A DNA stretch of 64,000 nucleotides from an uncultured Verrucomicrobiota bacterium (lineage in GTDB: Bacteria > Verrucomicrobiota > Kiritimatiellia > CAIQIC01 > CAZMXS01), in NCBI GenBank assembly GCA_964570325.1, contig CAZMXS010000011.1, positions 23,287 to 87,286 of the forward strand. Reading direction: 5' to 3'. Positions 3,554 through 60,563 of the stretch are shown one piece after another. Made by a program: the position numbers and the translations under genes. Position 1 is the stretch's first letter. Each line of letters begins with the position of its first letter. Under the pieces are notes generated by a model. That model was not told the DNA's origin, searched no databases, and saw only the letters and a program-made list of their open reading frames with translations.

Positions 3554-6500
3554 TTAGTCGTCTTTGACGGCGAAGTGCCGACGGCAGAAAGCCGAGAAGG
3601 AATCCGCCAGGCTGTACATCACCGGCACGACCACGAGGGTCAGGATGGTCGCCAGCGACAGGCCAAAGATCACGGCGACCGCCATCGGCGCCCACCATTG
3701 GCTGGATTCGGCGCCGGCGACGAACTTCCACGGCCAGGTGTGAATATCCAGGCTCCAACCGATGGCCATCGGAATCAGGCCCAGCACGGTGGTACTCGCC
3801 GTCAGCAGAACCGGCCGCAAGCGGAGGCGGCCGGCGGTGACCGCGGCCTCGGTCGCCGTTAATCCCTCGGCATGCCGTTTCAGCGTGCAGTCCAGCAGAA
3901 CAATTGCGTTGTTGACGACCACGCCGGCCAGGCTGATCACGCCCAGCCCGGTCATAATCACGCCGAAACGCATGCGGCAGATGACCAGCCCCCACATTAC
4001 GCCGATCGTGGATAGAATGACCGACACCAGGATGATCGCGGGATAAACCACCGAGTTGAACTGGATGACCAGGATGACCACAATACCGGCGATGGCGAGC
4101 CAAAAGGCCTTCATCAGGAATGCGCTGGATTCATTGAGATCCTGATTTTCGCCCGTATAGCGCACCGTGTAGCCGCGCGGCAGGGCCACTTCCGCCACGC
4201 GTTGCTGGATGTCGCGCAGGACGGCGTCAATGCTGCGTTCCTCGATGTCGCCGGTGATGGTGACGACACGCTTCTGATCCTTGCGCTTGATGTTGCCGCG
4301 TCCGCCGGTATAAACGATCTGCCCCAGCGAGGTCAGCGGCACCGTCTGTCCGGAGGACAGCGGGATGAAGATTTCCTCCAGCAGGCCGGCGCCTTGCCGG
4401 AAATGCAGGGGCAGGCGGACAGTAATATCATACTCATCCTCGCCGGCGCGGAACTTGCTGCTTTCAATGCCATAGATAGCCGACCGCAGGAAGTTGCCGA
4501 CCGCGCCGGTGTCCAGCCCCAACAGGGCGGCGCGCTGGCGGTCCACGCGGAACTGAATTTCCGGCAGGGCGTCCTCCAGGTTGTCCTGGAGATCCACCAG
4601 TCCAGGCACGTTCTCGATGGCGCGCTTGATTTCCGCGGACAGGCGCGCGAGTTCTTCAAACGATTCGCCGGCGATTTCGATGCTGATGGGCGCGCCAGTG
4701 GGGGGGCCGTGCTTTTCACGGTCCACCTTGGTTTCCGCGCCCGGAATGAGGCCGATGTCGTCGCGCAGCGTCTCGACCAGCGCGAGCGTGTTTGTGTGGC
4801 GCTCGTCTGCCGGCCGGAACTCGACTGTCAGCACGCCGATGTGCGTTCCCGATTCGCCCATGCCGGCGCCGGCGGTCGCGCCGACATTGCTGAGATAGAA
4901 CTTGATGTCCGCATACTTGGCCAGCTTCCGCTCGATACCGCGGATGGCGGCGTCTGTCTTGAGAATGTCGGCGCCCTGCGGGAAGCGCACCTCGATGGTG
5001 GCGCGGCGCGGCTCGGTGTCGGGGAAAAGTTCGATTCCCCGGCCGAAACGCCCGTACACCAGGAAACTCAGGATCAGGACCATGAACCCGGTGAGCATGA
5101 TCAGGCCGCGGTTCTTCAGCGCGCCGCGCAGAAACTGCTCGTAGCCGGCGACGAACCAGTGGTCGCTGACGATCTCGCCGCTGGCGTCGTGCCGCACCTT
5201 GCGCTTCTGCCCGTGGATGAAGATCGAGCAGATGGCCGGGTTGATCACGACGCCGACAAACAGGGAGGCAGTCAGCGTGATGATCAGCGTGCGCGGCAGA
5301 AAGTTCATGAACTGGCCCATGATGTCCGGCCAGAACAGCAGCGGAGCGAAAGCCGCCAGCGTGGTCAGCGTGGAGGTGATCACCGGCCAGGCTACCTCGG
5401 AGGCGCCGCGCTTCGCGGCTTCAAACTTGGACAGCCCCAGCGTGCGGTTGCGATAAATGTTTTCCACGATGACGACGGCGTTGTCCACCAGCATGCCGAC
5501 CGCCAGCACCAGGCTGAACAACACGATCATATTCAGTGTCAGGCCATACAGGTTCAGGACGGTGAAAGACAACAGCATGGAAAGGGGGATGGCCATGCCG
5601 ACGAAGAGCGCGTTGCGCCAGCCCATGAAAAGCAGGATGACCACCACCACCAGCACGAAGCCGGAGAATATGTTGTTCTCCAGCTCTTTGATCATGTCGG
5701 CGATAAACTCGGATTGGTCCATGATGATGGTCAGCTTGATGCCCGGCGGCAACTGGAACCGATCGAGCAATTGCTTGATATCCCGGATCATGGCGACCGT
5801 GTTGACACCGGAGCGCTTTTTGACCTGGATGGAAAGGCATGGCTCGCCGTTCAGCCGTGAGATGGAGGACAAATCCTTGTATGTGTCCGTTACCGTGGCG
5901 ACATCAGTCAGGTACACCGGTCGGCCATTGCGAACGGCGACGACCAGGTCCCGGAGTTCGTTCACCAGGGTGAACTCGCCCGGCACGCGCACTTGGAACT
6001 TGCCGCCTGTCATTTCCAGGTTGCCGGCGGAGACGGTGGAATTCTCGCGCCCGATCAGGCTGATCACGGCGGCAATCGGGATTTGCTGGGCGATCAGGCG
6101 GGGCAGGTCCACCTCGACGCGGATTTCGCGCTCGCGCGCGCCATAGACCGCCGCCTGCTTCACGCCCGGTCGGGCTTCGATCTGGTCCTGCAAGTCGTCC
6201 GCCAGGTTCTTCAACCGGGTCAGGTCCGGATCGCCCGAAAGCGCGAAGATCAGGACCGGCGAGTCCGTGCTGAAATTGAAAGCCTCGACGGTTGGCTCAT
6301 CAAGATCCTGCGGCAGGTCCGGCGCCGCCAGGTCAATCTTGTCCTTGACCTTCTGTTTGGCGGCATCCATGTCCTCCTGGGGCGTAAACTCGATCATGAT
6401 CATCGTCACGCCCTCGGCGGATGTGGAATTCATCTCCTTGACGTTGTCCAAATCGTTTAGCTTTTTCTCCATCGGGATGGTGACCAGATTTTCCATTTCC

Positions 6501-48897: not shown

Positions 48898-50031
48898 ATG
48901 TCGCCGACGGATCAACTGGTAATGGAAACCGGCCGCGAACCGGATGGAGCATTGCGGATCGCGCTGCATGGCCGGCTGGACATCCACACGGCCGGCGGGG
49001 TGTGGGCGGACGCCGTGCGCGCCCTGGATGAATTGGACGGGCGCAAACTGGTGATTGACGCGGCGGCGGTCAGCTACTGCGACGGGGCGGGGGTCGGGTT
49101 GCTGGTCGAATTATGCCGGCGGCGCGGGCGCGCGGGTGCCGGCTGGGAAGTGCGCGGGTTGCGCCCCGAATTTCAGCACATCTTCAACTTGTTCAATCCC
49201 GATGATTTCGCGCCGATGCCGCATGCGCCCCATCGCCTGGCCGCCTGGCCGGAGGAGGTGGGGCGCGCGGTCGGGCGCGTCGCGGTTGACCTGCGTCAGC
49301 AGATTGGTTTTGTCGGCGAGCTGTCCGCGGCGGTGGCCATGGCGATACGGCATCCGGGCCGGGTGCGGTGGGGCGATATTCTGCGGGTGATGGAACTGGC
49401 GGGGGTCAACGCCCTGCCGATCGTCGCCCTGATCGGGCTTCTGCTCGGGTTGATCCTGGCCTTCCAGTCGGCGATCGCTCTCAGCCGCTATGGCGCCGAG
49501 CTGTTTGTCGCCAATCTGGTCGCGCTCTCCCTGTTTCGCGAACTGGGGCCGTTGATGACGGCGATCATTTTGACGGCCCGATCCGGTTCCGCGTTTGCGG
49601 CGGAGATTGGCACCATGAAGGTCAACGAGGAGGTGGACGCGCTGATCACGATGGGTCTGGACCCCGTGCGCTTCCTGGTGGTGCCGCGCGTGCTGGGGGC
49701 GGTGGTGGTGACGCCGCTGCTGACGGTTTTCGCGAACCTGTTCGGACTGATCGGCGCGGCGGTTGTCGTGCGCTCGCTGGGCTATCCGCTGGTGACCTAT
49801 GTCAACCAGGTGGTATCGGCCGTCAATGTGACCGCGGCGGTCGGCGGACTGGTCAAGGCATTTGTTTTTGGCGTGCTGGTGGCGGCGGTTGGCTGCCTGC
49901 GCGGCTTGCAGACGCAGAGCGGCGCCAGCGCCGTGGGCGACGCCACCACGCGCGCCGTGGTCAGCGGCATCGTCCTGATTGTGTTGGCGGACGGGTTGTT
50001 TTCGGTCCTGTTTTACTACCTGGGGGTCTAG
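48898..50031 (+). CDS. mlaE: MlaE-family ABC permease with N-terminal STAS-domain fusion
   Basis: The N-terminal ~100 aa is STAS-like (LVIDAAAVSYCDGAGVGLLVEL). The C-terminal ~260 aa is the MlaE/Ttg2B permease (RSGSAFAAEIGTMKVNEEVDAL). Confidence 0.8.
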   Translation: MSPTDQLVMETGREPDGALRIALHGRLDIHTAGGVWADAVRALDELDGRKLVIDAAAVSYCDGAGVGLLVELCRRRGRAGAGWEVRGLRPEFQHIFNLFNPDDFAPMPHAPHRLAAWPEEVGRAVGRVAVDLRQQIGFVGELSAAVAMAIRHPGRVRWGDILRVMELAGVNALPIVALIGLLLGLILAFQSAIALSRYGAELFVANLVALSLFRELGPLMTAIILTARSGSAFAAEIGTMKVNEEVDALITMGLDPVRFLVVPRVLGAVVVTPLLTVFANLFGLIGAAVVVRSLGYPLVTYVNQVVSAVNVTAAVGGLVKAFVFGVLVAAVGCLRGLQTQSGASAVGDATTRAVVSGIVLIVLADGLFSVLFYYLGV

Positions 50032-52520: not shown

Positions 52521-53627
52521 CTATTCCGTGTCCGCTGCCTGGAAAGTCAAAATCACTTCGGTGCCGTGATCCTCGGGATGGCGCTCCGCGTCGCGCGAGC
52601 GCACCTCGATTTCGCCGCCGTAGAAATGCATGAAACGTTGGACCAGCGGCATCCCGAAGCCGGTGCCGATCTCGCCGGCCGTGCCGGTGCGGCTGGTCTT
52701 TTTGCTGATATCGAAAAGATCGCGCAGGATGGCGGGCGGGATGCCGATGCCCTGGTCGCGCACGGTCACTCGCACGCGTTTGCCGGCGCGTTCCGCCGCG
52801 AGGGTGATGCTGGAGTCCGGCAGCGAGAACTTGAGCGCGTTGGTCAGCAGATTGTTGATGACGGAGTTGACGAGCGAGGTCATCTCCGCGATCACGCGCA
52901 AGCCGGTGTCAGCCGGCCACGCCAGTTTCACGCCTTTCAGGTCGAGCTGCGGTTTGAGGATGCGCGCGGAGAGCGCGAACGCCGCGTCGAGGGCCACGGG
53001 GCCGAGCGGCAGCTTGAACTCCTCGAGCGCCCGCATCCGGCGGACCATATCAATCAAGTCCAACCCGTTCCGGGCCAGCGCGCGGATCAGCTCGCGTGGG
53101 TCATAGTTCCCGGCCGCGGCCGCCGCCAGTTCCGGGGTCGCGAGCATTTGGATATTGCCCAGCGTGGTCACCAGGTCGTGACAGAGCACGTGCAGCATTT
53201 CCTTGCGCTCGCGGCCAACCTGTTCCAGCGCCGCCCGGTGGCGCGCCAGGTCCAGGTGCGTGCGCACGCGCGCGCGCAGCTCGTCGGCATTGAACGGTTT
53301 GGTGATGTAGTCCACGGCGCCCAGCGCGAACCCGCGCGTCAGCGCCTCCGTTTCCGCGCGCGCGGTCAGGAAAATGACCGGAATATCAGCCAGCCGCCGG
53401 TCGGCTTTCAACCGGCGGCAGGTCTCGTAGCCGTCCAGGTCGGGCATCAGCACATCGAGCAGGATCAGGTCCGGCGGATCCTCGGCCGCGATGGCGAGCG
53501 CCTCCACACCGTTGCTGGCGCAGACGATCTCGACGTCCTCCTCGCGTAGCACGCTGCCGGCCACCTGGATATTCTCCGCCACGTCGTCCACGAGCAGGAG
53601 CAGCGGCGGTCGTCGTTCCGGGTTCAT
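52521..53627 (-). CDS. receiver-histidine kinase fusion (N-terminal REC, HisKA, HATPase)
   Basis: REC LLLVDDVAENI...LLDVLMPDLDG. H-box VLCHDLVTTLGNI. HATPase G-boxes. Confidence 0.8.
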   Translation of the reverse strand: MNPERRPPLLLLVDDVAENIQVAGSVLREEDVEIVCASNGVEALAIAAEDPPDLILLDVLMPDLDGYETCRRLKADRRLADIPVIFLTARAETEALTRGFALGAVDYITKPFNADELRARVRTHLDLARHRAALEQVGRERKEMLHVLCHDLVTTLGNIQMLATPELAAAAAGNYDPRELIRALARNGLDLIDMVRRMRALEEFKLPLGPVALDAAFALSARILKPQLDLKGVKLAWPADTGLRVIAEMTSLVNSVINNLLTNALKFSLPDSSITLAAERAGKRVRVTVRDQGIGIPPAILRDLFDISKKTSRTGTAGEIGTGFGMPLVQRFMHFYGGEIEVRSRDAERHPEDHGTEVILTFQAADTE

Positions 53628-54187
53628 GGTTCATCAATCCCAAAGTGTTTTTTCAGGCAATCCGGGCAGATGCCGTGGGAGAAGTTGGTGCCGGTCCGGC
53701 GGTGGATGAAAAAGTCAATCCGTTCCCAATGGTTATCGGCCTCGCGGATGCGATTGCAGTAGGAGCAGATCGGAAGCAGGCTTTCCAGTTGACGCAGGCG
53801 CAGGTGGGTGCGGACGCGGGCCTTCAACTCGGCCGGCTTGAAGGGCTTGGTGACGTAATCCACGGCGCCGGCGTCGAAGCCCTGTACGATGTCGTCCGTT
53901 TCCGCCCGCGCCGTGATGAAGATCACCGGGATGGTGGAAACGGCCGGCATGCGTTTGAGCTGGCGGCAGACCGCGAAGCCATCCATGCCGGGCATCATCA
54001 CGTCGAGCAGGATCAAGTCCGGCGGATCTTCACGGATGAAATCGAGGGCCTCCTGGCCGCTGGCGGACAGGCCGATATCCACATCCTCTTCCTGCAGGAT
54101 CTGCCCCAGCACCTGCAGGTTCTCCGGCACGTCGTCCACGAGCAGGACGAGCGGCCGATTTTGTTTCCCCTCACGACTTGTCCGCAT
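53624..54187 (-). CDS. response regulator with C-terminal CxxC...CPxC zinc-ribbon-like output domain
   Basis: [14 protein letters not shown]...[11 protein letters not shown]...TKPF. The tail [39 protein letters not shown] has two Cys pairs 24 aa apart. Overlaps both flanking kinase genes. Confidence 0.7.
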
Positions 54188-56612
54188 GGCCGGCCCCCTT
54201 CATTTCCCGTTGCGCCGTCCGGGCCAGGCTTTCCAGGCTCCGGACGATATCCGGATACTCCGCCAATACGCCGGGCAGCGCCCGGGTGTCAATGCTTTCC
54301 GCCTTGTTCTGGAGCCGGGCGGCCCAGGCGCCGAGCGCCGGCGCGGCGTGCGCCAGCGCCAGTTCCTGCACGCGCGTGGCCAGATCCTTGATTTTATTGA
54401 TATACAGTCGGCGGCGCACGCCTTCCCAAAGCGGCTGAACCTCGGTCGCCAGGACGGCCAGCAACTCCGGCCAGCGGGTGGGATCGGGCGCTACGGTCGG
54501 TCCCGGTGGCGCGGCCGGCGCGGGCGTCGGCGCGGCAGCGGTCGCCGTATCCGCCAACGGCAAAAAACGCGCCAGCTCGCGGCAGAGCGCGTCGCGCGTG
54601 ACGGGTTTGAAGACCACCCCGTCGCAGCCGGCCTCCCGGATGACCTCGGCGGTGTTGCCCATGATGGAAGCCGTGACCGCCACCAAGGGGATGCCGCAAA
54701 GTTCCGGATCGGCCTTGAGCCGGGCGCAAACCTCGTACCCGTCCATCTCGGGCATTTTCATGTCCAGCAGGATGAGGGCGGGCCGTTGTTGCCGCACGGC
54801 CGCGAGCACCTGCCGGCCATTTTCGGCTTGTTGCAGCAACAGGCCGGTGCCTTCCAGGTAGGCCGCCAACAGGTTGCGATTGGCGGCGACATCATCGGCT
54901 ACCAGCACCTGGGCCGGCTGGAAACGCAACGGGCGCTCGCTCGCCGGGGCCAGACTCTCGCCGGCGCAAGGCCGCACCTTTTCTAGAATCAGGCGGAAGA
55001 CGCTGCCCTGGCCGACAACGCTTTCGACCTCGATGCGCCCGCCCAGCAGTTCGGCCAGGCGGCGGCTGATCGTCAGGCCCAATCCCGTGCCTCCATACTG
55101 GGCATGGCTCTGGCCGCGGCGCTGCTGGAAGGCTTCAAAGATCAATTCGCGGTCATCTTCGGGGATGCCGATGCCCGTGTCCCGCACCTCGATCACCAGG
55201 CGCAGCATCTCCGCTTCCGGCTGCGGTTCGGCGCGCGCCGCGAGCGTGATGCCGCCCTGGTGGGTGAACTTGACGGCGTTGCCGGCGAGATTGAGCAGGA
55301 TCTGCCGCAGGCGGATCTCGTCCAGCCACACATAGGATGGCAGGGACGCGTCCGCCTCCACGTCGAAGCGGATGGCTTTCTCCGCGCACTTGGTCCGAAA
55401 GATCTGTTGGATCTCGTTCAAGACGGCGCGCGGATCCAGCGCCGCGAAGTGTACCTCGATCCGGCCGGCCTCGATCTTGGACAAATCCAGAATGTCGTTG
55501 ATCAGCGTCAGCAAGGTCCGGCCGCTGGCCTGGATGGAGTCGAGGAACTCGCGTTGCATGGGGTCGGTGCAGCGTCCGATCAGCACCTCGGTGAAGCCGA
55601 GGATCGCGTTCATCGGGGTGCGGATTTCGTGACTCATGTTGGCCAGGAACTCGCTCTTGGCCGCGCTGGCCATTTCGGCCTTGACCGCCAGGTCGTTGGC
55701 GCGCGCGATCGCCGCCTCGAGCCGGCGGTTGGCCTCCTCGGCGTTGGCGCGGGCGGCCTGGGCATCCAGCATCAGGTTCAGCGCCGCCCGCCGTTGCCGG
55801 GCCAGTTCCGCGGCGCGCTGGGTCAGCATCTGATTGGCGGCCCGCTGCTGTTCCTCCGCCTGCACGCGCGCGGTGATATCCTGGAACGTGCCGTTCAACC
55901 TGACCGTTTTCCCGTCCATTATCTGCGGAATGCAGATGGCGCGCACCCAGATCAGCCGGCCCTTGGCCGTTACGAACCGGCACTCCAGGTCGAATGGCGT
56001 CCCGTGCGCCATGGATTCGGCGACGGCCTCGCGAACGCGGCCCCGGTCCTCCGGGTGGTAAAAGTTGATGGCCTCTTCAATCCGCGGTTCGTAGTCCGGC
56101 GGCACTTCATGGATGCGGTAGGTTTCGGTGGTCCAGCTCAACTCGCGGGTCGGGATATCGAACGACCAGCCGCCGATCTGCGCCATACGCCCGGTCGCAT
56201 CCAACAAATCTCGGCTGGCCTGCAGATCCGTGCGCGACTCCCGTAGATTGGCCACCATCGTGTTGAAGGAGCGGGCGAAGTCACCCATGAAGTCCACGTG
56301 CTGAGTGAGGTCGCCATGGGCGATGCGCTCGGTCTGCCAAGCCAGATGGCGCAGGTCGGCTTGCAGGGATTTCAGCGCCCCGGCCAGTGTGCCGCGCACT
56401 TTCAATTCCGCCGCCAGATTGCCATTTGCCAGCGCCAGCGCAAAATCCCGGATGGCCTGGGCTTGCGCCGCCAGATCCCGGAACAACGGGTCGCGCGCCA
56501 GGGCCGGCGGGGTCTCGGGCGGCGCCTCGCCCGTGATAATCAGCGCGCGCAGGGCCGCGAGAGCCGCGCGGGTCTCGGGTGCAAGCGCATCGTTCTGGTC
56601 GGGTTCGGGCAT
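54171..56612 (-). CDS. cytoplasmic hybrid sensor histidine kinase (HAMP-like, PAS, HisKA, HATPase, REC, C-terminal helical/Hpt-like)
   Basis: 813 aa with no TM segment. HAMP-like [28 protein letters not shown]-box [15 protein letters not shown]. HATPase. [17 protein letters not shown]...[11 protein letters not shown]. Confidence 0.85.
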
Positions 56613-56706: not shown

Positions 56707-57228
56707 TTACTTCACCGCCTCCGCCGCGAAGCGGCAGGTCCGGTCGCCGGTGCACCAGCAATCCACTTCCTTGACCTTGAACGGCCGGCCGCTGAACGAT
56801 TCGAGCAGGGCGGCGATGAAGCCTTCGTCATACTTGCAAATCTCGAATTCGGTTTCCGGCAGGCCCGAGCAGTCGAGATCCTCGGAGACCGTAATGACGA
56901 ACCGGCCCTGCTGGAGATCGGCCTGCTCCACGCGCAACACACCGATGCCCATTTCCAGCAGCGTTTCCTGGATGCGGCGGATAAAGACATCGAAATCCCG
57001 CTGCTCCCCCAGCACATGCCGGTAAAATTCCCGGCCGGCCAGTTCGCCGGCCGCGTAGAAAATCCGGTCGGCCTCTTCCGCGCCGTAACGGGCCTCGATC
57101 ACATCGCGGAAAGTGAACTGCATCAGCCGGTAAACCTCCAATCGCGCCGTCGGTCCCAGGTTGGGCCGGCCGACTTGCAGGTTGCCTAGCAGATTCCATT
57201 GGAACTGGTATTTACGGGTTGGGTTCAT
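56707..57228 (-). CDS. V4R (4-vinyl-reductase-like) small-ligand-binding domain protein
   Basis: 173 aa. C-terminal Cys-containing V4R signature DCWCTGDRTCRF. Overlaps the upstream sensor gene by 17 nt. Confidence 0.65.
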   Translation of the reverse strand: MNPTRKYQFQWNLLGNLQVGRPNLGPTARLEVYRLMQFTFRDVIEARYGAEEADRIFYAAGELAGREFYRHVLGEQRDFDVFIRRIQETLLEMGIGVLRVEQADLQQGRFVITVSEDLDCSGLPETEFEICKYDEGFIAALLESFSGRPFKVKEVDCWCTGDRTCRFAAEAVK

Positions 57229-59023
57229 CGGTTTTCTTGGCCTCCTCTTCGGGTAACGGGTAGGCCGGCGGCAGGCCGGCTGCGGCCCGGAGTTGGTTGA
57301 TTTCCGCTTTCAGCTCGATCATGCGCAGCTCGCGTCCGACCATGATCTGGTTGAACTGCTCCAGTTCCTCCATGGCCAGCCGCAGCTTTTCGTTCAATGC
57401 CTTCTGCTCCCGGTATAATTCCTCGGCGCGGGCCTTGGCCTGCGTGGCGTCTTCCATGATGCTCAACGCGTGTCGGCGGGAGTGCTCCAATTCCGCCGCG
57501 CGTCGTTCGAGCTCGGCGTTGACTGCGCGCAGACGCGCTTCGTTGGCGTGGATGGTCGCCTCGGCGCGCTGCGCTTCGGTGCAGTCCTCGATAATTCCGA
57601 CACCGCCAAGAATCTGGCCGTTCGCATCGGTGATGCGTTGCATGTACATGCGGATGGGGACGATCTTGCCGGAGAGCACGGACGTGTAGTCTCCCTCATA
57701 GAAGCTGAGTTCGCCGGCGAGCGCCTGGTGAATGGCCCCCAGCATCTTTTCATCCCGGATCTGCCGCAACAAATTGAACCCCCGCAGTTGTTCCGCGCTG
57801 ACGTTGAATAGCCGCAGCAGGCGTTCGTTGAAATCGCGGACGATGCCTTGTGCATCGCAATACAGCAGGCCGAGCGGCGCGTGCTGAAACACCATTCGGA
57901 AACGCTCCTCGCTGGTGCGCAGGGCCTGCGCCGTCGCTTCTCGCTCGGCCAGTCCCTTTTCCAGTTGCCGTTGCACCAGCCGCATTTGGTGGTTGAGTCG
58001 GGTGGTGGCGATCAGCAGGCCGGCCATTATGGCCAGCAGCAAGACGCCGCCCGCGATCGGTTTCCAAAAACGCGCCAATAAGTCTGCGGCGCTCATGTCG
58101 CCCAGCTTTTCAAATGGGCTGACGCGCAGCTCCTGCAGGCAGTCCACCACCGGCTGGTAATTCATGGGGAACAGCCAACGGATACGTGGCGCGGTTTTGT
58201 CCGCGGCGGAGGGGGGCATGGCCAGGAGCGCAATGGCGGTGTGCATCGCCGTATCGCGGTCCACATGCGGCAGGACGGCGCACGGCCACTCGGGATACAG
58301 CCGGGTGCTCAAGTGGAAGGGAAACACTTCGGGCGCGTAATGGAAATGTGGGGAGGGCAGCACCTTGAAATCCTCCAATCGGATAACCCCGTCGGCGGCC
58401 ATATCTTCCAGAACCAGGGTGCGGACCACGCCCGCGTCAGCCCGGCCGTCGCGCACCATGGCGACCACCTCGTCATGGTTGCGGGTGAACCGGAGGGCCC
58501 GGAAATCCTTTTCCGGATCCAGGCCGTCGTGCTGGAATTCGCGCCGGGCGGCGACCCAACCGCCGAACGACTTGGGGTCCACGGCGGCAAACGTCCGGCC
58601 CTTCAGGTCCGCGAAGCGGGCGATGTCGGCCCGATCTGCGCGGGTGAACACGACCCCGCCGAACAGTCCGGCCGCCAGCTCGCCCGAACCCCGCTCGGAG
58701 GTGGCGATGGCGCTGGCCTCGTTCAGCATCTGGAACTCGACGTACAGGCCGGAGTTACAGATAACGAAATCCACGAGTTTGGAACGTACCGCGGCCGCGA
58801 TTTCTTCGAAGCCAAGCGGCGCCAGTTCGTATTGCCACGGCAGGCCCGCTTGGTTGAGATGCGCGATCGTCGGCGACCAGGTGCGCACACATTTGCCCGT
58901 CCCCTCGTTGGCCAGGGCGCCGACGCGGTATACGGTCCCCGTCCCGGCGCGGGCGGCGAGCACGCCACCCAGCGCAAGCAGGCCGGCGACGGCCGCCGCT
59001 TTCCAAATGTCACACCGCATCAT
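57212..59023 (-). CDS. membrane sensor: periplasmic PhnD/SsuA-like SBP domain, TM, PAS, long C-terminal coiled coil; no kinase/output domain
   Basis: Signal peptide MMRCDIWKAAAVAGLLALGGVLA. PhnD-like TVYRVGALANEGTG. TM FWKPIAGGVLLLAIMAGLLIA. PAS. The coiled coil ends ...FNQIMVGRELRMIELKAEINQLR. Confidence 0.65.
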   Translation of the reverse strand: MMRCDIWKAAAVAGLLALGGVLAARAGTGTVYRVGALANEGTGKCVRTWSPTIAHLNQAGLPWQYELAPLGFEEIAAAVRSKLVDFVICNSGLYVEFQMLNEASAIATSERGSGELAAGLFGGVVFTRADRADIARFADLKGRTFAAVDPKSFGGWVAARREFQHDGLDPEKDFRALRFTRNHDEVVAMVRDGRADAGVVRTLVLEDMAADGVIRLEDFKVLPSPHFHYAPEVFPFHLSTRLYPEWPCAVLPHVDRDTAMHTAIALLAMPPSAADKTAPRIRWLFPMNYQPVVDCLQELRVSPFEKLGDMSAADLLARFWKPIAGGVLLLAIMAGLLIATTRLNHQMRLVQRQLEKGLAEREATAQALRTSEERFRMVFQHAPLGLLYCDAQGIVRDFNERLLRLFNVSAEQLRGFNLLRQIRDEKMLGAIHQALAGELSFYEGDYTSVLSGKIVPIRMYMQRITDANGQILGGVGIIEDCTEAQRAEATIHANEARLRAVNAELERRAAELEHSRRHALSIMEDATQAKARAEELYREQKALNEKLRLAMEELEQFNQIMVGRELRMIELKAEINQLRAAAGLPPAYPLPEEEAKKTDEPNP

Positions 59024-60563
59024 AGCGAGGCGCTTCCTGGAGCCGCCGGAGCAGCTCGTTGACTTCCCGTTTCAGCTCGATGATCCGGTCCTCGCGGCCG
59101 GCCATCGCGCGGTTCATCTGCTCGACCTCCGCCAGCGTCGCGCGCAGGCGCGTGTCCGCGCCTTCGCGCTCGGTGATGTCCTCCACCAGCACGATATAGC
59201 CCAGGCGGCCGCCCGGATCGCGCAGCGCATTAATGATGATCATCAGTATCCGTTTGCCGCATTTGCGGGTCCGGTATAATTGGCGCTCGCGGACGAGGTC
59301 AAAATCGAAATCCACCTTGTATCGGACGGCTTCGCCTTGCTCGAGGCGCGGTCGGACATCGGCGGGCAGATTCGGATCGTCGAATAGCTTGAAGCCGCGG
59401 ATCTCGGTGGGATCCTCGACGCCGAAGATGTCGAGGATCGTCGTGTTGACGTCCAGCAATCGGCCCGCGGCGTCGTACACCTCGATGCCGATGGGCGCTT
59501 GGGCGAAGACGCCGCGGAAACGCGCCTCGCTCTCGCGCAGCGCCATTTCAACCTGGTGCTGGGCGGTGATATCCCGCAGGATCTCGATGCGGCCGCGTTC
59601 GGCTTGCCGCGCGTCGCGGACAACAGCAGTGCTATAGTCGAACCACCGTGTCTGGCCGGACAACTCCAGAGATCGAACGCCGGGCGCGGCGGCCAGCAAG
59701 TCGGGCCACGGCGCCGGCAGCTCGTCTCGATGCTTGCCGATGCACGCATGTGGCGGACACCCGACTTCATGCGCTGCTGCCGCGTTGAGGTCCACCAACC
59801 GGTGTTGGCGGTCCGTAACGAAGACCAGTTCGGGCAAGTGGTCCAGCAGCACGCCGCGCGCGATCGGGCGGATATCGAGGGCGCGATAGCCCAGGACCAC
59901 CCAGGCCGCTGTGGCGACCGAGACGGACAGCGCGAACGGCGCCAGGTTGATATGCGGCACTGGAGACCGACCCAGGTTAAACAATAAGTTGAAAACCAGG
60001 GGAACGATATATCCGGCCAACAGCAGCGCGATCTGCCGCCGCACGAGCGGCGCCGCGCCGCGCCAGTGCCATGCCAGCAGCAGCGGGACCAGGATAGCCA
60101 GCAGGTTGATAAAAATGATGTAAATTCGATACCATATTCCATTGGTGCAGATCAGGATGCCCAGCCGGCCGGCGGGATCCAATGGATAGACAGTGAAGTC
60201 ATATTGAAACAGATGGTGGAGCGGGGCGGTGAGGGCGAGTGCGATGGTCGCCAGGTTCCAGACCACGATGGCGGACCAGAACCAGCGGGGCAGGCGGACC
60301 CCAATGCCCAGCATATCGCGCAGCAGGTACAGCCAGACCACCGGAATCCAAGGCAGGCAAACAAAACGGGCGAGGTGCGCGGCGATCTTCGCCTCGCGGG
60401 TCGGCAAAACCAGTTCCAGGTAATAGGAGAGCGCCCAGCCGCCGCTGACGAGCAGCATCGTAAAAAAGGTGGTCGTGACGTTGCTGCGCGGGCGTGTTTG
60501 AGCATACCAGGCCAGGAGCATGTAGGCGACGACGTTGAAAATCAGAATATCCGCGAAGATCAT
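59010..60563 (-). CDS. membrane sensor: 7-TM-type N-terminal domain, two PAS domains, C-terminal coiled coil; no kinase/output domain
   Basis: The ORF-track start at 60617 is trimmed to the ATG at 60563 (MIFADILIF...). About 7 hydrophobic helices. Two PAS domains. Ends ...MNRAMAGREDRIIELKREVNELLRRL. Overlaps the downstream sensor gene by 14 nt. Confidence 0.65.
   Translation of the reverse strand: MIFADILIFNVVAYMLLAWYAQTRPRSNVTTTFFTMLLVSGGWALSYYLELVLPTREAKIAAHLARFVCLPWIPVVWLYLLRDMLGIGVRLPRWFWSAIVVWNLATIALALTAPLHHLFQYDFTVYPLDPAGRLGILICTNGIWYRIYIIFINLLAILVPLLLAWHWRGAAPLVRRQIALLLAGYIVPLVFNLLFNLGRSPVPHINLAPFALSVSVATAAWVVLGYRALDIRPIARGVLLDHLPELVFVTDRQHRLVDLNAAAAHEVGCPPHACIGKHRDELPAPWPDLLAAAPGVRSLELSGQTRWFDYSTAVVRDARQAERGRIEILRDITAQHQVEMALRESEARFRGVFAQAPIGIEVYDAAGRLLDVNTTILDIFGVEDPTEIRGFKLFDDPNLPADVRPRLEQGEAVRYKVDFDFDLVRERQLYRTRKCGKRILMIIINALRDPGGRLGYIVLVEDITEREGADTRLRATLAEVEQMNRAMAGREDRIIELKREVNELLRRLQEAPRYDAV

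Follow-up and report, generated by a model that had tools for sequence, protein, structure and literature searches.

The nearest published analogue of the protein described here is REC-HalOD2 of haloarchaea, in which a receiver (REC) domain is followed by a HalX-like helical segment and a C-terminal CXXC pair that is predicted to form a Zn finger, and for which the function is unknown (Galperin et al., 2018; PMC5847659). The protein in question is a response regulator with a four-cysteine (Cys4) tail. It is encoded on the minus strand at positions 53624..54187 of a 64,000-nucleotide stretch of DNA (the window; contig CAZMXS010000011.1, positions 23,287 to 87,286) from an uncultured Verrucomicrobiota bacterium and is termed the REC-tail protein below. 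It resembles REC-HalOD2 in having a receiver, a helical segment and two C-terminal CXXC motifs. By its description HalOD2 is set apart: it is reported from a few halobacteria only, and its CXXC motifs lie 20–25 residues apart (PMC5847659). The Cys4 tail, in contrast, is bacterial, occurs in many phyla, has a fixed spacing of 29 residues, and is also located behind PAS, GAF and MASE domains.

A likeness of another kind is provided by the PAS-histidine kinases and by REC-stalk-GGDEF proteins such as WspR and PleD, in which, as is proposed for the Cys4 tail, a parallel coiled coil with a length set in heptad steps leads from the sensor or receiver to the effector (PMC1592074). Register-preserving coiled-coil linkers from sensor to effector are an established theme, and heptad-quantised linkers are a hallmark of the parallel dimeric coiled coils that relay conformational signals to effector domains (PMC1592074). 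By analogy, the REC-tail protein would work most like these coiled-coil-coupled transmitters, with a non-enzymatic head of 37 residues. Its receiver is structurally closest to the receivers of PleD, the OmpR family and RR468. The Cys4 head differs from the kinase and cyclase transmitters in being a predicted metal knuckle without a plausible catalytic site, and the sequence conserved in its neck is its own and not the 'ERT' signature of the S-helix. In phosphorelays, single-domain regulators of the CheY, DivK and MrrA type frequently act as terminal acceptors or hubs. Like the REC-tail protein, they have no DNA-binding or enzymatic domain, and their output is presumably partner binding; they end at alpha5, whereas the REC-tail protein adds a domain that is conserved more strongly than the receiver and is also found without a receiver. 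A functional analogy may further be drawn with DksA/TraR, in which a coiled coil plus a small Cys4 finger acts by protein binding, namely to RNA polymerase. However, the coiled coil of DksA is an antiparallel hairpin with a spacing of about 17 residues, no DksA sequence was returned by the profile search of PDB sequences, and many members of the tail family are membrane-anchored. Compared with these systems, the REC-tail protein may be described as a response regulator with an uncharacterised output, and the tail module itself may represent a new class of transmitter.

The open reading frame (ORF) of the REC-tail protein is complete, with an ATG start and 187 residues plus the stop codon, as the ORF list and the sequence agree and as had been described in a first reading of the letters alone (the sequence-only reading). 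That reading had also given overlaps of 17 nt with the upstream hybrid kinase gene (54171..56612) and 4 nt (ATGA) with the downstream REC-kinase gene (52521..53627), and both are present. A protein 100% identical to that of the window (P0004) was located on eight metagenome contigs. The receiver domain covers residues 14–126 (53810..54148, minus strand) and was matched by Pfam PF00072 Response_reg with an E value of 1.3e-33 and a score of 116 bits, against a curated cut-off of 30.2. The codon of the phospho-acceptor D62, read from the sequence, lies at 54002-54004 on the minus strand. The catalytic and switch set of the receiver is complete on direct reading (D18, D19, D62, T92, Y111 and K114), and these columns were conserved at 90% or more in 37 homologues. 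The Foldseek comparison of the full-length model with the PDB returned receiver domains only, including those of RpaA, PleD, MtrA and RR468 (E 2e-14 to the RpaA, PleD and MtrA receivers), and WspR was aligned over the receiver plus the stalk. The protein is thus a member of the receiver superfamily by every feature that could be tested. Phosphorylation by a cognate kinase is suggested by genetic linkage, as the hybrid kinase gene is adjacent. No DNA-binding response-regulator domain of the OmpR/PhoB, NarL/FixJ, LytTR or NtrC type was detected in the Pfam or NCBIfam scan, in which such NCBIfam models matched over their receiver portion only. Hence, the claim that neither a DNA-binding helix-turn-helix (HTH) nor an enzymatic output domain follows the receiver was upheld, at E<=0.01 in Pfam for the whole protein and at E<=10 for the tail alone.

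About 60 residues lie beyond the receiver, and they read LLPIC-x2-C ... W ... SHGICPDC. The Cys4 core spans 37 residues (141–177; 53657..53767, minus strand) with the arrangement C141-x2-C144-x9-W154-x16-H171-x2-C174-P-x-C177, as derived from the motif scan, the alignment columns and the AlphaFold (AF2) model. The spacing of CxxC-x24-CPxC given in the sequence-only reading needs correction, because 29 residues separate C144 from C174 and the motif is therefore CxxC-x29-CPxC. A C-terminal extension of ten residues (53627..53656, minus strand) follows the fourth cysteine and ends the protein. In 37 aligned homologues with 40–71% identity, L134, C141, C144, W154, H171, C174 and C177 were invariant; the four cysteines, the conservation of which had earlier been left in question, are hence conserved. 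The whole-protein search yielded more than 100 proteins of about 185 residues with the same architecture and 45–71% identity, from Verrucomicrobiota, Myxococcota, Desulfobacterota, Riflebacteria and others.

The profile search of the tail that had been proposed on the basis of the letters was carried out, and the tail proved to belong to a large family that ends receiver, PAS, GAF and further sensor proteins. A HMMER profile of 21 tail sequences, run against 1.84 billion cluster representatives, matched 24,903 clusters at E<=1e-3 and 20,075 at E<=1e-10. Given the invariant Cys, Trp and His residues and the 20,075 clusters at E<=1e-10, the tail pattern is far beyond chance. The bare tail of 58 residues, used as a query, returned three proteins owing to a word-index limit, which was overcome by the alignment-based searches. 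When one genome per GTDB species was scanned for the pattern, at least 591 confirmed relatives were obtained among the 600 stretches listed, and the lineages among the matches listed were Gemmatimonadota, Verrucomicrobiota, Desulfobacterota, Acidobacteriota, Spirochaetota, Planctomycetota, Ignavibacteria, Elusimicrobia, Cloacimonadota, Nitrospirae, Kiritimatiellia, Marinimicrobia and some Gammaproteobacteria. The core from Cys1 to Cys4 measured exactly 37 residues in 445 of 453 family copies, and 26 of its 37 positions were conserved at 64% or more in these copies, the motif statistics being drawn from top-scoring or query-like samples. The consensus of the core is C-[SA]-x-C-K-K-I-R-D-D-x-G-Y-W-x-Q-[IV]-E-x-Y-I-x-x-H-S-x-A-x-F-S-H-G-I-C-P-[DE]-C. 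The core of the window keeps all ligands, the Trp and the His, and it carries N5, R6, E9, A10, N12, H13, F20 and R24 at the positions of K5, K6, D9, D10, G12, Y13, Y20 and H24 in the consensus.

The receiver and the Cys4 head are joined by a helical neck. In the model and by heptad spacing, helix alpha5 continues into this neck over residues 118–139 (53771..53836, minus strand); in the full-length AF2 model the helix itself covers residues 118–135, with alpha5 of the receiver running straight into the neck. The distance from the Lys of beta5 (K114 in the window) to Cys1 was equal to 27 + 7n in 173 of 175 REC-tail proteins. The classes were 27, 34, 41, 48, 55 and 62 residues, and the class of 27 was the commonest, with 105 proteins including that of the window (K114-C141). 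The chance probability that six length classes share one register is about (1/7)^5. Furthermore, the distance from the 'DIT' motif, with which the PAS fold closes, to Cys1 was 21, 35 or 42 residues in 41 of 43 PAS-tail proteins (35 in 38 of them), and an a/d hydrophobic repeat was present in the 30 residues preceding Cys1 in 228 members other than REC proteins. The conserved sequence of the neck is E-L-x-x-A-L-x-E-V-K-T-L-x-G-L-L-P-I-C. The 27 + 7n spacing, as a pattern in the sequences, indicates a putative register-locked coiled coil, and the preservation of the register argues against a passive tag, which would not need it.

The position of the module was evaluated in two samples of the family. 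It was C-terminal throughout, with a median of 16–18 residues past Cys4. The N-terminal partners in the 150 best representatives were PAS (about 34), MASE6 (22), REC (14), GAF, PocR, dCache, Reg_prop/Y_Y_Y, HAMP, CHASE and 5TMR-LYT, and those in 78 proteins of species-representative genomes were REC (47), PAS (about 11), GAF, MASE3, 7TMR-DISM, 5TMR-LYT, Reg_prop and TPR. Single architectures included 5TMR-LYT-GAF-tail, CHASE-tail, HAMP-PAS3-tail, NMT1-PAS-tail, Diacid_rec-PAS-PAS-tail and Reg_prop-Y_Y_Y-tail. In other proteins, such partner modules lead into a histidine kinase, a GGDEF domain or an HTH. The 25 commonest families of either sample included no kinase, GGDEF, EAL or HTH family, and a kinase core was found in none of the 62 genome-derived tail proteins. 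Since the partners are input modules and kinase cores are absent, domain architecture, read in the usual way, assigns the tail to the slot of a transmitter or output. In 9 of the 150 best representatives (among them P0124, P0125, P0127, P0129-P0131 and P0134), a complete tail was present twice, in the arrangement sensor-tail-sensor-tail; these proteins look like fused tandem paralogues, and the module is thus not always strictly terminal. At one locus (L088), an 80-residue receiver-fragment ORF (4643-4885) is followed by a separate 87-residue tail ORF (5001-5264), and the pair probably arose from one REC-tail gene by splitting or a frameshift. Fragments are thus likely among the many 'stand-alone' tail proteins of 60–150 residues, and the gene contexts of the stand-alone tails were uninformative, at least one being a split gene.

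The reading that best accommodates these results, and for which the chances are judged to be about even, is that the REC-tail protein is a terminal response regulator with a dimeric, coiled-coil-coupled, metal-stabilised head as its output, which binds a partner. The upstream hybrid kinase would phosphorylate D62, either directly or via its 134-residue C-terminal extension, and the OmpR/PleD-like receiver would then dimerise. As the neck (...L-x-x-L-L-P-I-C) would be a parallel coiled coil in heptad register that continues alpha5 unbroken, dimerisation of the receiver would set the relative position of the two metal-stabilised heads. In one of two states, the direction of the switch being conjectural, the paired heads would bind a putative cellular partner, and the metal would presumably be Zn rather than Fe. 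The same neck plus head would serve as the transmitter that ends PAS, GAF, MASE, CHASE, 5TMR-LYT and HAMP sensors. A wider proposal, which is offered tentatively and is somewhat less probable, is that the neck plus Cys4 head forms a previously unrecognised major class of transmitter (at least 25,000 clusters at 50% identity in more than 12 phyla) that couples receivers, one-component sensors or membrane sensors by way of a register-locked coiled coil to one common target.

Several points weigh against the terminal-regulator reading. The pLDDT (predicted local distance difference test) of the tail was only 61–78 in the full-length model, and the four-Cys metal site is a predicted one. The 'output' role is suggested by architecture, and signalling is possible without any output domain, as in single-domain receivers and PAS-only proteins. 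The tail of the window belongs to a divergent subfamily, in which seven otherwise conserved positions differ (N5, E9, A10, N12, H13, F20 and R24); these residues are common to the window and its closest relatives (P0005-P0014), and the partner of the main family may not necessarily be shared. No Hpt was recognisable in the hybrid kinase of the window by Pfam or by hhalign against the canonical Hpt of related kinases, and the phosphoryl route to D62 is a putative one. Moreover, all-against-all clustering of 719 ORFs from 84 loci, with genes called by a crude longest-ORF procedure, gave no conserved partner gene outside the two-component system.

If the proposal of a transmitter class is true, a new output route would stand beside kinases, cyclic-nucleotide enzymes, the signalling domains of methyl-accepting chemotaxis proteins and DNA-binding domains. 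Censuses of bacterial signalling sort proteins by output domain, and proteins ending in the tail are thus counted as output-less. A sizeable part of the sensory repertoire would then use an unmapped route, in Desulfobacterota, Acidobacteriota, Verrucomicrobiota (including Akkermansia-like genomes), Planctomycetota, Spirochaetota and Gemmatimonadota. Very small, extremely conserved and joined rigidly to the sensor, the module lends itself to biochemistry, and it is potentially useful as a minimal engineered output.

The nature of the partner was considered from the composition and distribution of the core. The core is acidic, with a mean net charge of -1.6 in the family, whereas that of the window is about neutral. 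Membrane anchors are carried by at least one in five of the sampled members (MASE6 in 22 of 150, together with CHASE, 5TMR-LYT, dCache and HAMP), and exposed polar residues are conserved across phyla and architectures, which fits a target shared by all of them. Hence, a protein is more likely than a nucleic acid to be the partner of the head. The alternative is that the tail is a new nucleic-acid-binding zinc finger, with REC-tail proteins as regulators of transcription or RNA and PAS-tail or GAF-tail proteins as one-component regulators. A sensor plus a small C-terminal domain does resemble the one-component regulators, and in Diacid_rec-PAS-PAS-tail the tail takes the place at which CdaR-type regulators carry an HTH. 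Tail genes without a receiver were rarely found beside kinases (2 of 27), K5, K6 and R8 of the core are conserved, and two heads paired on a coiled coil could hold a palindromic site. The Zn finger of haloarchaeal REC-HalOD2 has likewise been predicted to bind DNA or RNA (PMC5847659). However, the acidic core and the membrane anchors speak against this alternative, no similarity to DNA-binding zinc families was detected in Pfam or the PDB, and the very high surface conservation across phyla misfits paralogues that read many operators; overall, nucleic-acid binding appears unlikely. The sequence-only reading had envisaged a Zn-dependent effector acting through protein or RNA binding. Its first half remains the best reading, as a metal-dependent effector that binds a partner, and RNA (or DNA) binding is disfavoured by the same acidic core and membrane-anchored members.

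The predicted fold was compared with curated families. In the tail-only AlphaFold model (pLDDT 82.9), the CxxC knuckle leads into a beta-hairpin, which is followed by a helix, by a loop with F-S-H-G-I-C, and by CPxC at the N-terminus of the last helix. By this model the fold resembles a treble clef more than a two-hairpin ribbon. The term 'zinc ribbon' used earlier is therefore only approximate, since the model places the CxxC on a beta-hairpin and the CPxC at a helix N-terminus, and no zinc-ribbon family was matched. Rubredoxin, zinc-ribbon knuckle proteins and bL36 share with the tail the two CxxC knuckles, of which the second is CPxC. The first knuckle and strand of bL36 resemble those of the tail, and 14 residues of this ribosomal protein were the most suggestive PDB match (E 0.3; 'piCeyCkvIr'). 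In contrast with rubredoxin and the zinc ribbon, the second ligand pair of the tail is predicted on a helix N-terminus and an extra helix is located between the knuckles, and neither Pfam nor the PDB gave a significant match. The Pfam search of the tail (2025 copy) up to E = 10 returned noise only (Perm-CXXC at 0.012, below the cut-off), NCBIfam (2026) returned nothing beyond a 12-residue chance match, and the profile search of PDB sequences at E<=10 gave no significant match and no rubredoxin or ribbon family. A match to a known DNA-binding zinc ribbon, which had been conceivable at the outset, was thus not obtained. The precomputed Pfam annotations of 240 family members cover the N-terminal domains only, and the source names of the tail proteins are 'hypothetical protein', 'response regulator', 'PAS domain protein' or unrelated COG labels. 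A full-text literature search, outside which the subscription literature lies, gave no description of the module. None of the resources on domains, structures and literature that were consulted, among which InterPro, CDD and the subscription literature were not included, contains the Cys4 tail module.

Other candidate identities were compared with the tail. The Hpt comparison gave no Pfam match and no HxxKG four-helix bundle, the prediction being a hairpin plus two short helices. The ZAS domain is an N-terminal helical anti-sigma domain of about 90 residues with the motif H-x3-C-x2-C; this candidate was rejected because the tail has H-x2-C-x2-C, is C-terminal, has a 37-residue core and a hairpin-containing fold, and has no Pfam match. 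An HNH-like nuclease was likewise rejected, as no His or Asn is located at the catalytic positions and no Pfam match was found. The protein is outside any DNA-binding regulator family, Hpt, ZAS, and any curated zinc-ribbon or rubredoxin family, the features tested being absent each time.

The ligand geometry also bears on the possibility that the tail is a second input, in which a rubredoxin-like Fe(Cys)4 or Zn-thiolate redox or metal switch modulates the receiver (or the PAS or GAF domain) and signalling proceeds via the receiver surface, as in single-domain regulators. The spacing C-x2-C-x29-C-P-x-C equals that of rubredoxin. H171 sits in S-H-G-I-C beside the predicted metal ligands as an invariant extra His, and a second His is frequent at core position 24. 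Many host lineages are anaerobic (Desulfobacterota, Spirochaetota and Cloacimonadota), and no output partner turned up in the 84 neighbourhoods. On the other side, rubredoxin was absent from both the Pfam scan and the PDB profile search at E<=10, and aerobic lineages, too, commonly carry the module (Gemmatimonadota, Acidobacteriota, Verrucomicrobiota and Planctomycetota). The module is the last domain, at the end of a register-locked coiled coil behind bona fide sensor domains, which is the position of a transmitter, and an input role would leave the membrane sensor-tail proteins without any output. The input role is regarded as quite improbable.

The genomic context is consistent with the reading of a terminal regulator. 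The REC-tail gene is the fifth of a six-gene cluster on the minus strand, in the order 7TM-PAS, PBP-PAS, V4R, hybrid kinase, REC-tail and REC-kinase. All adjacent genes overlap, save for a gap of 94 nt between the V4R and hybrid kinase genes, and the same gene order was found on another contig (L001). The upstream hybrid histidine kinase (54171..56612, minus strand) has the Pfam architecture HAMP-PAS-HisKA-HATPase-REC plus the 134-residue C-terminal extension, and it is the probable phosphodonor of the REC-tail protein. A hybrid kinase adjoins the REC-tail gene in seven of the seven loci looked up, lying upstream in six (often overlapping) and downstream in one. In the genome sample, where genes were again called crudely as longest ORFs, a kinase was next door to 19 of 35 REC-tail genes and to 2 of 27 tail genes without a receiver. 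Canonical Hpt (AHxLKG) ends 9 of 22 upstream kinases, and in these cases the REC-tail protein would be the terminal acceptor of a His-Asp-His-Asp relay. The extension that follows the receiver of the window's hybrid kinase (54171-54590, minus strand) had no Pfam hit and is common to the orthologues L005 and L006, and the His at its Hpt-equivalent position is not conserved in L005.

The downstream REC-histidine kinase (52521..53627, minus strand; 368 residues; Pfam REC plus HATPase_c) is of importance for a further alternative, raised in part by the sequence-only reading, in which the REC-tail protein is a phosphotransfer intermediate or a phosphate sink that competes with the receiver of the REC-kinase for the phosphoryl groups of the hybrid kinase, and the tail is a structural dimerisation cap. 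The REC-tail gene does lie between those of the hybrid kinase and the REC-kinase, with the overlaps of 17 nt and 4 nt. The receiver of the REC-kinase is 61% identical over 120 residues to that of the REC-tail protein, and the hybrid kinase's own receiver just 42%; the identity of 61% suggests what may be a recent in-operon duplication that gave two outputs with the same input specificity. As the hybrid kinase has no detectable Hpt, an unusual relay is also conceivable. The idea of an intermediate is weakened, however, by the thousands of receiver-less proteins with the same tail, which ends PAS, GAF, MASE and CHASE proteins without phosphoryl chemistry. Moreover, the closest orthologues pair the REC-tail gene with a hybrid kinase alone; as the REC-kinase gene is not conserved beside them, it looks like a local duplication that created a branch. 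The Hpt that ends 9 of the 22 upstream kinases likewise makes the REC-tail protein a terminal acceptor rather than an intermediate. The tail has no Hpt-like HxxKG four-helix bundle, and conservation at 26 of 37 core positions, exposed charged ones included, exceeds the needs of a cap. A sink or intermediate is on this balance quite improbable.

The clusters obtained from the 84 loci were tail proteins, hybrid kinases, antisense shadow ORFs and a few REC-kinases. Long antisense shadow ORFs are typical of high-GC DNA. In the window, two such ORFs overlap the REC-tail gene on the plus strand, at 53645-54391 (248 residues) and 53889-54986 (365 residues), both without family support, and similar antisense ORFs formed a spurious cluster of seven loci in the neighbourhood analysis.

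The remaining genes of the cluster were assigned from their ORFs and Pfam matches. The V4R protein (56707..57228, minus strand; 173 residues) is possibly a small-molecule-binding sensor, and its gene overlaps that of the PBP-PAS sensor by 17 nt. The PBP-PAS sensor (57212..59023, minus strand; 603 residues) has a phosphonate-type PBP plus PAS, and its gene overlaps that of the 7TM-PAS sensor by 14 nt. The 7TM-PAS sensor (59010..60563, minus strand; 517 residues) has HisKA_7TM plus two PAS domains. Both sensors are without an output domain, and both end 15–27 residues past the motif GRE-x-R-[MI]-I-E-L-K-x-E-[VI]-N-x-L, which lies at 59058-59099 and 57296-57337 on the minus strand. This motif was found in no other fetched locus or protein and did not co-occur with the tail family; a further uncurated signalling element, short and C-terminal, may be present here. 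Elsewhere in the window, at 48898-50031 on the plus strand, an N-terminal STAS domain is fused to an MlaE-type ABC permease in one ORF, and the ABC ATPase is encoded behind it.

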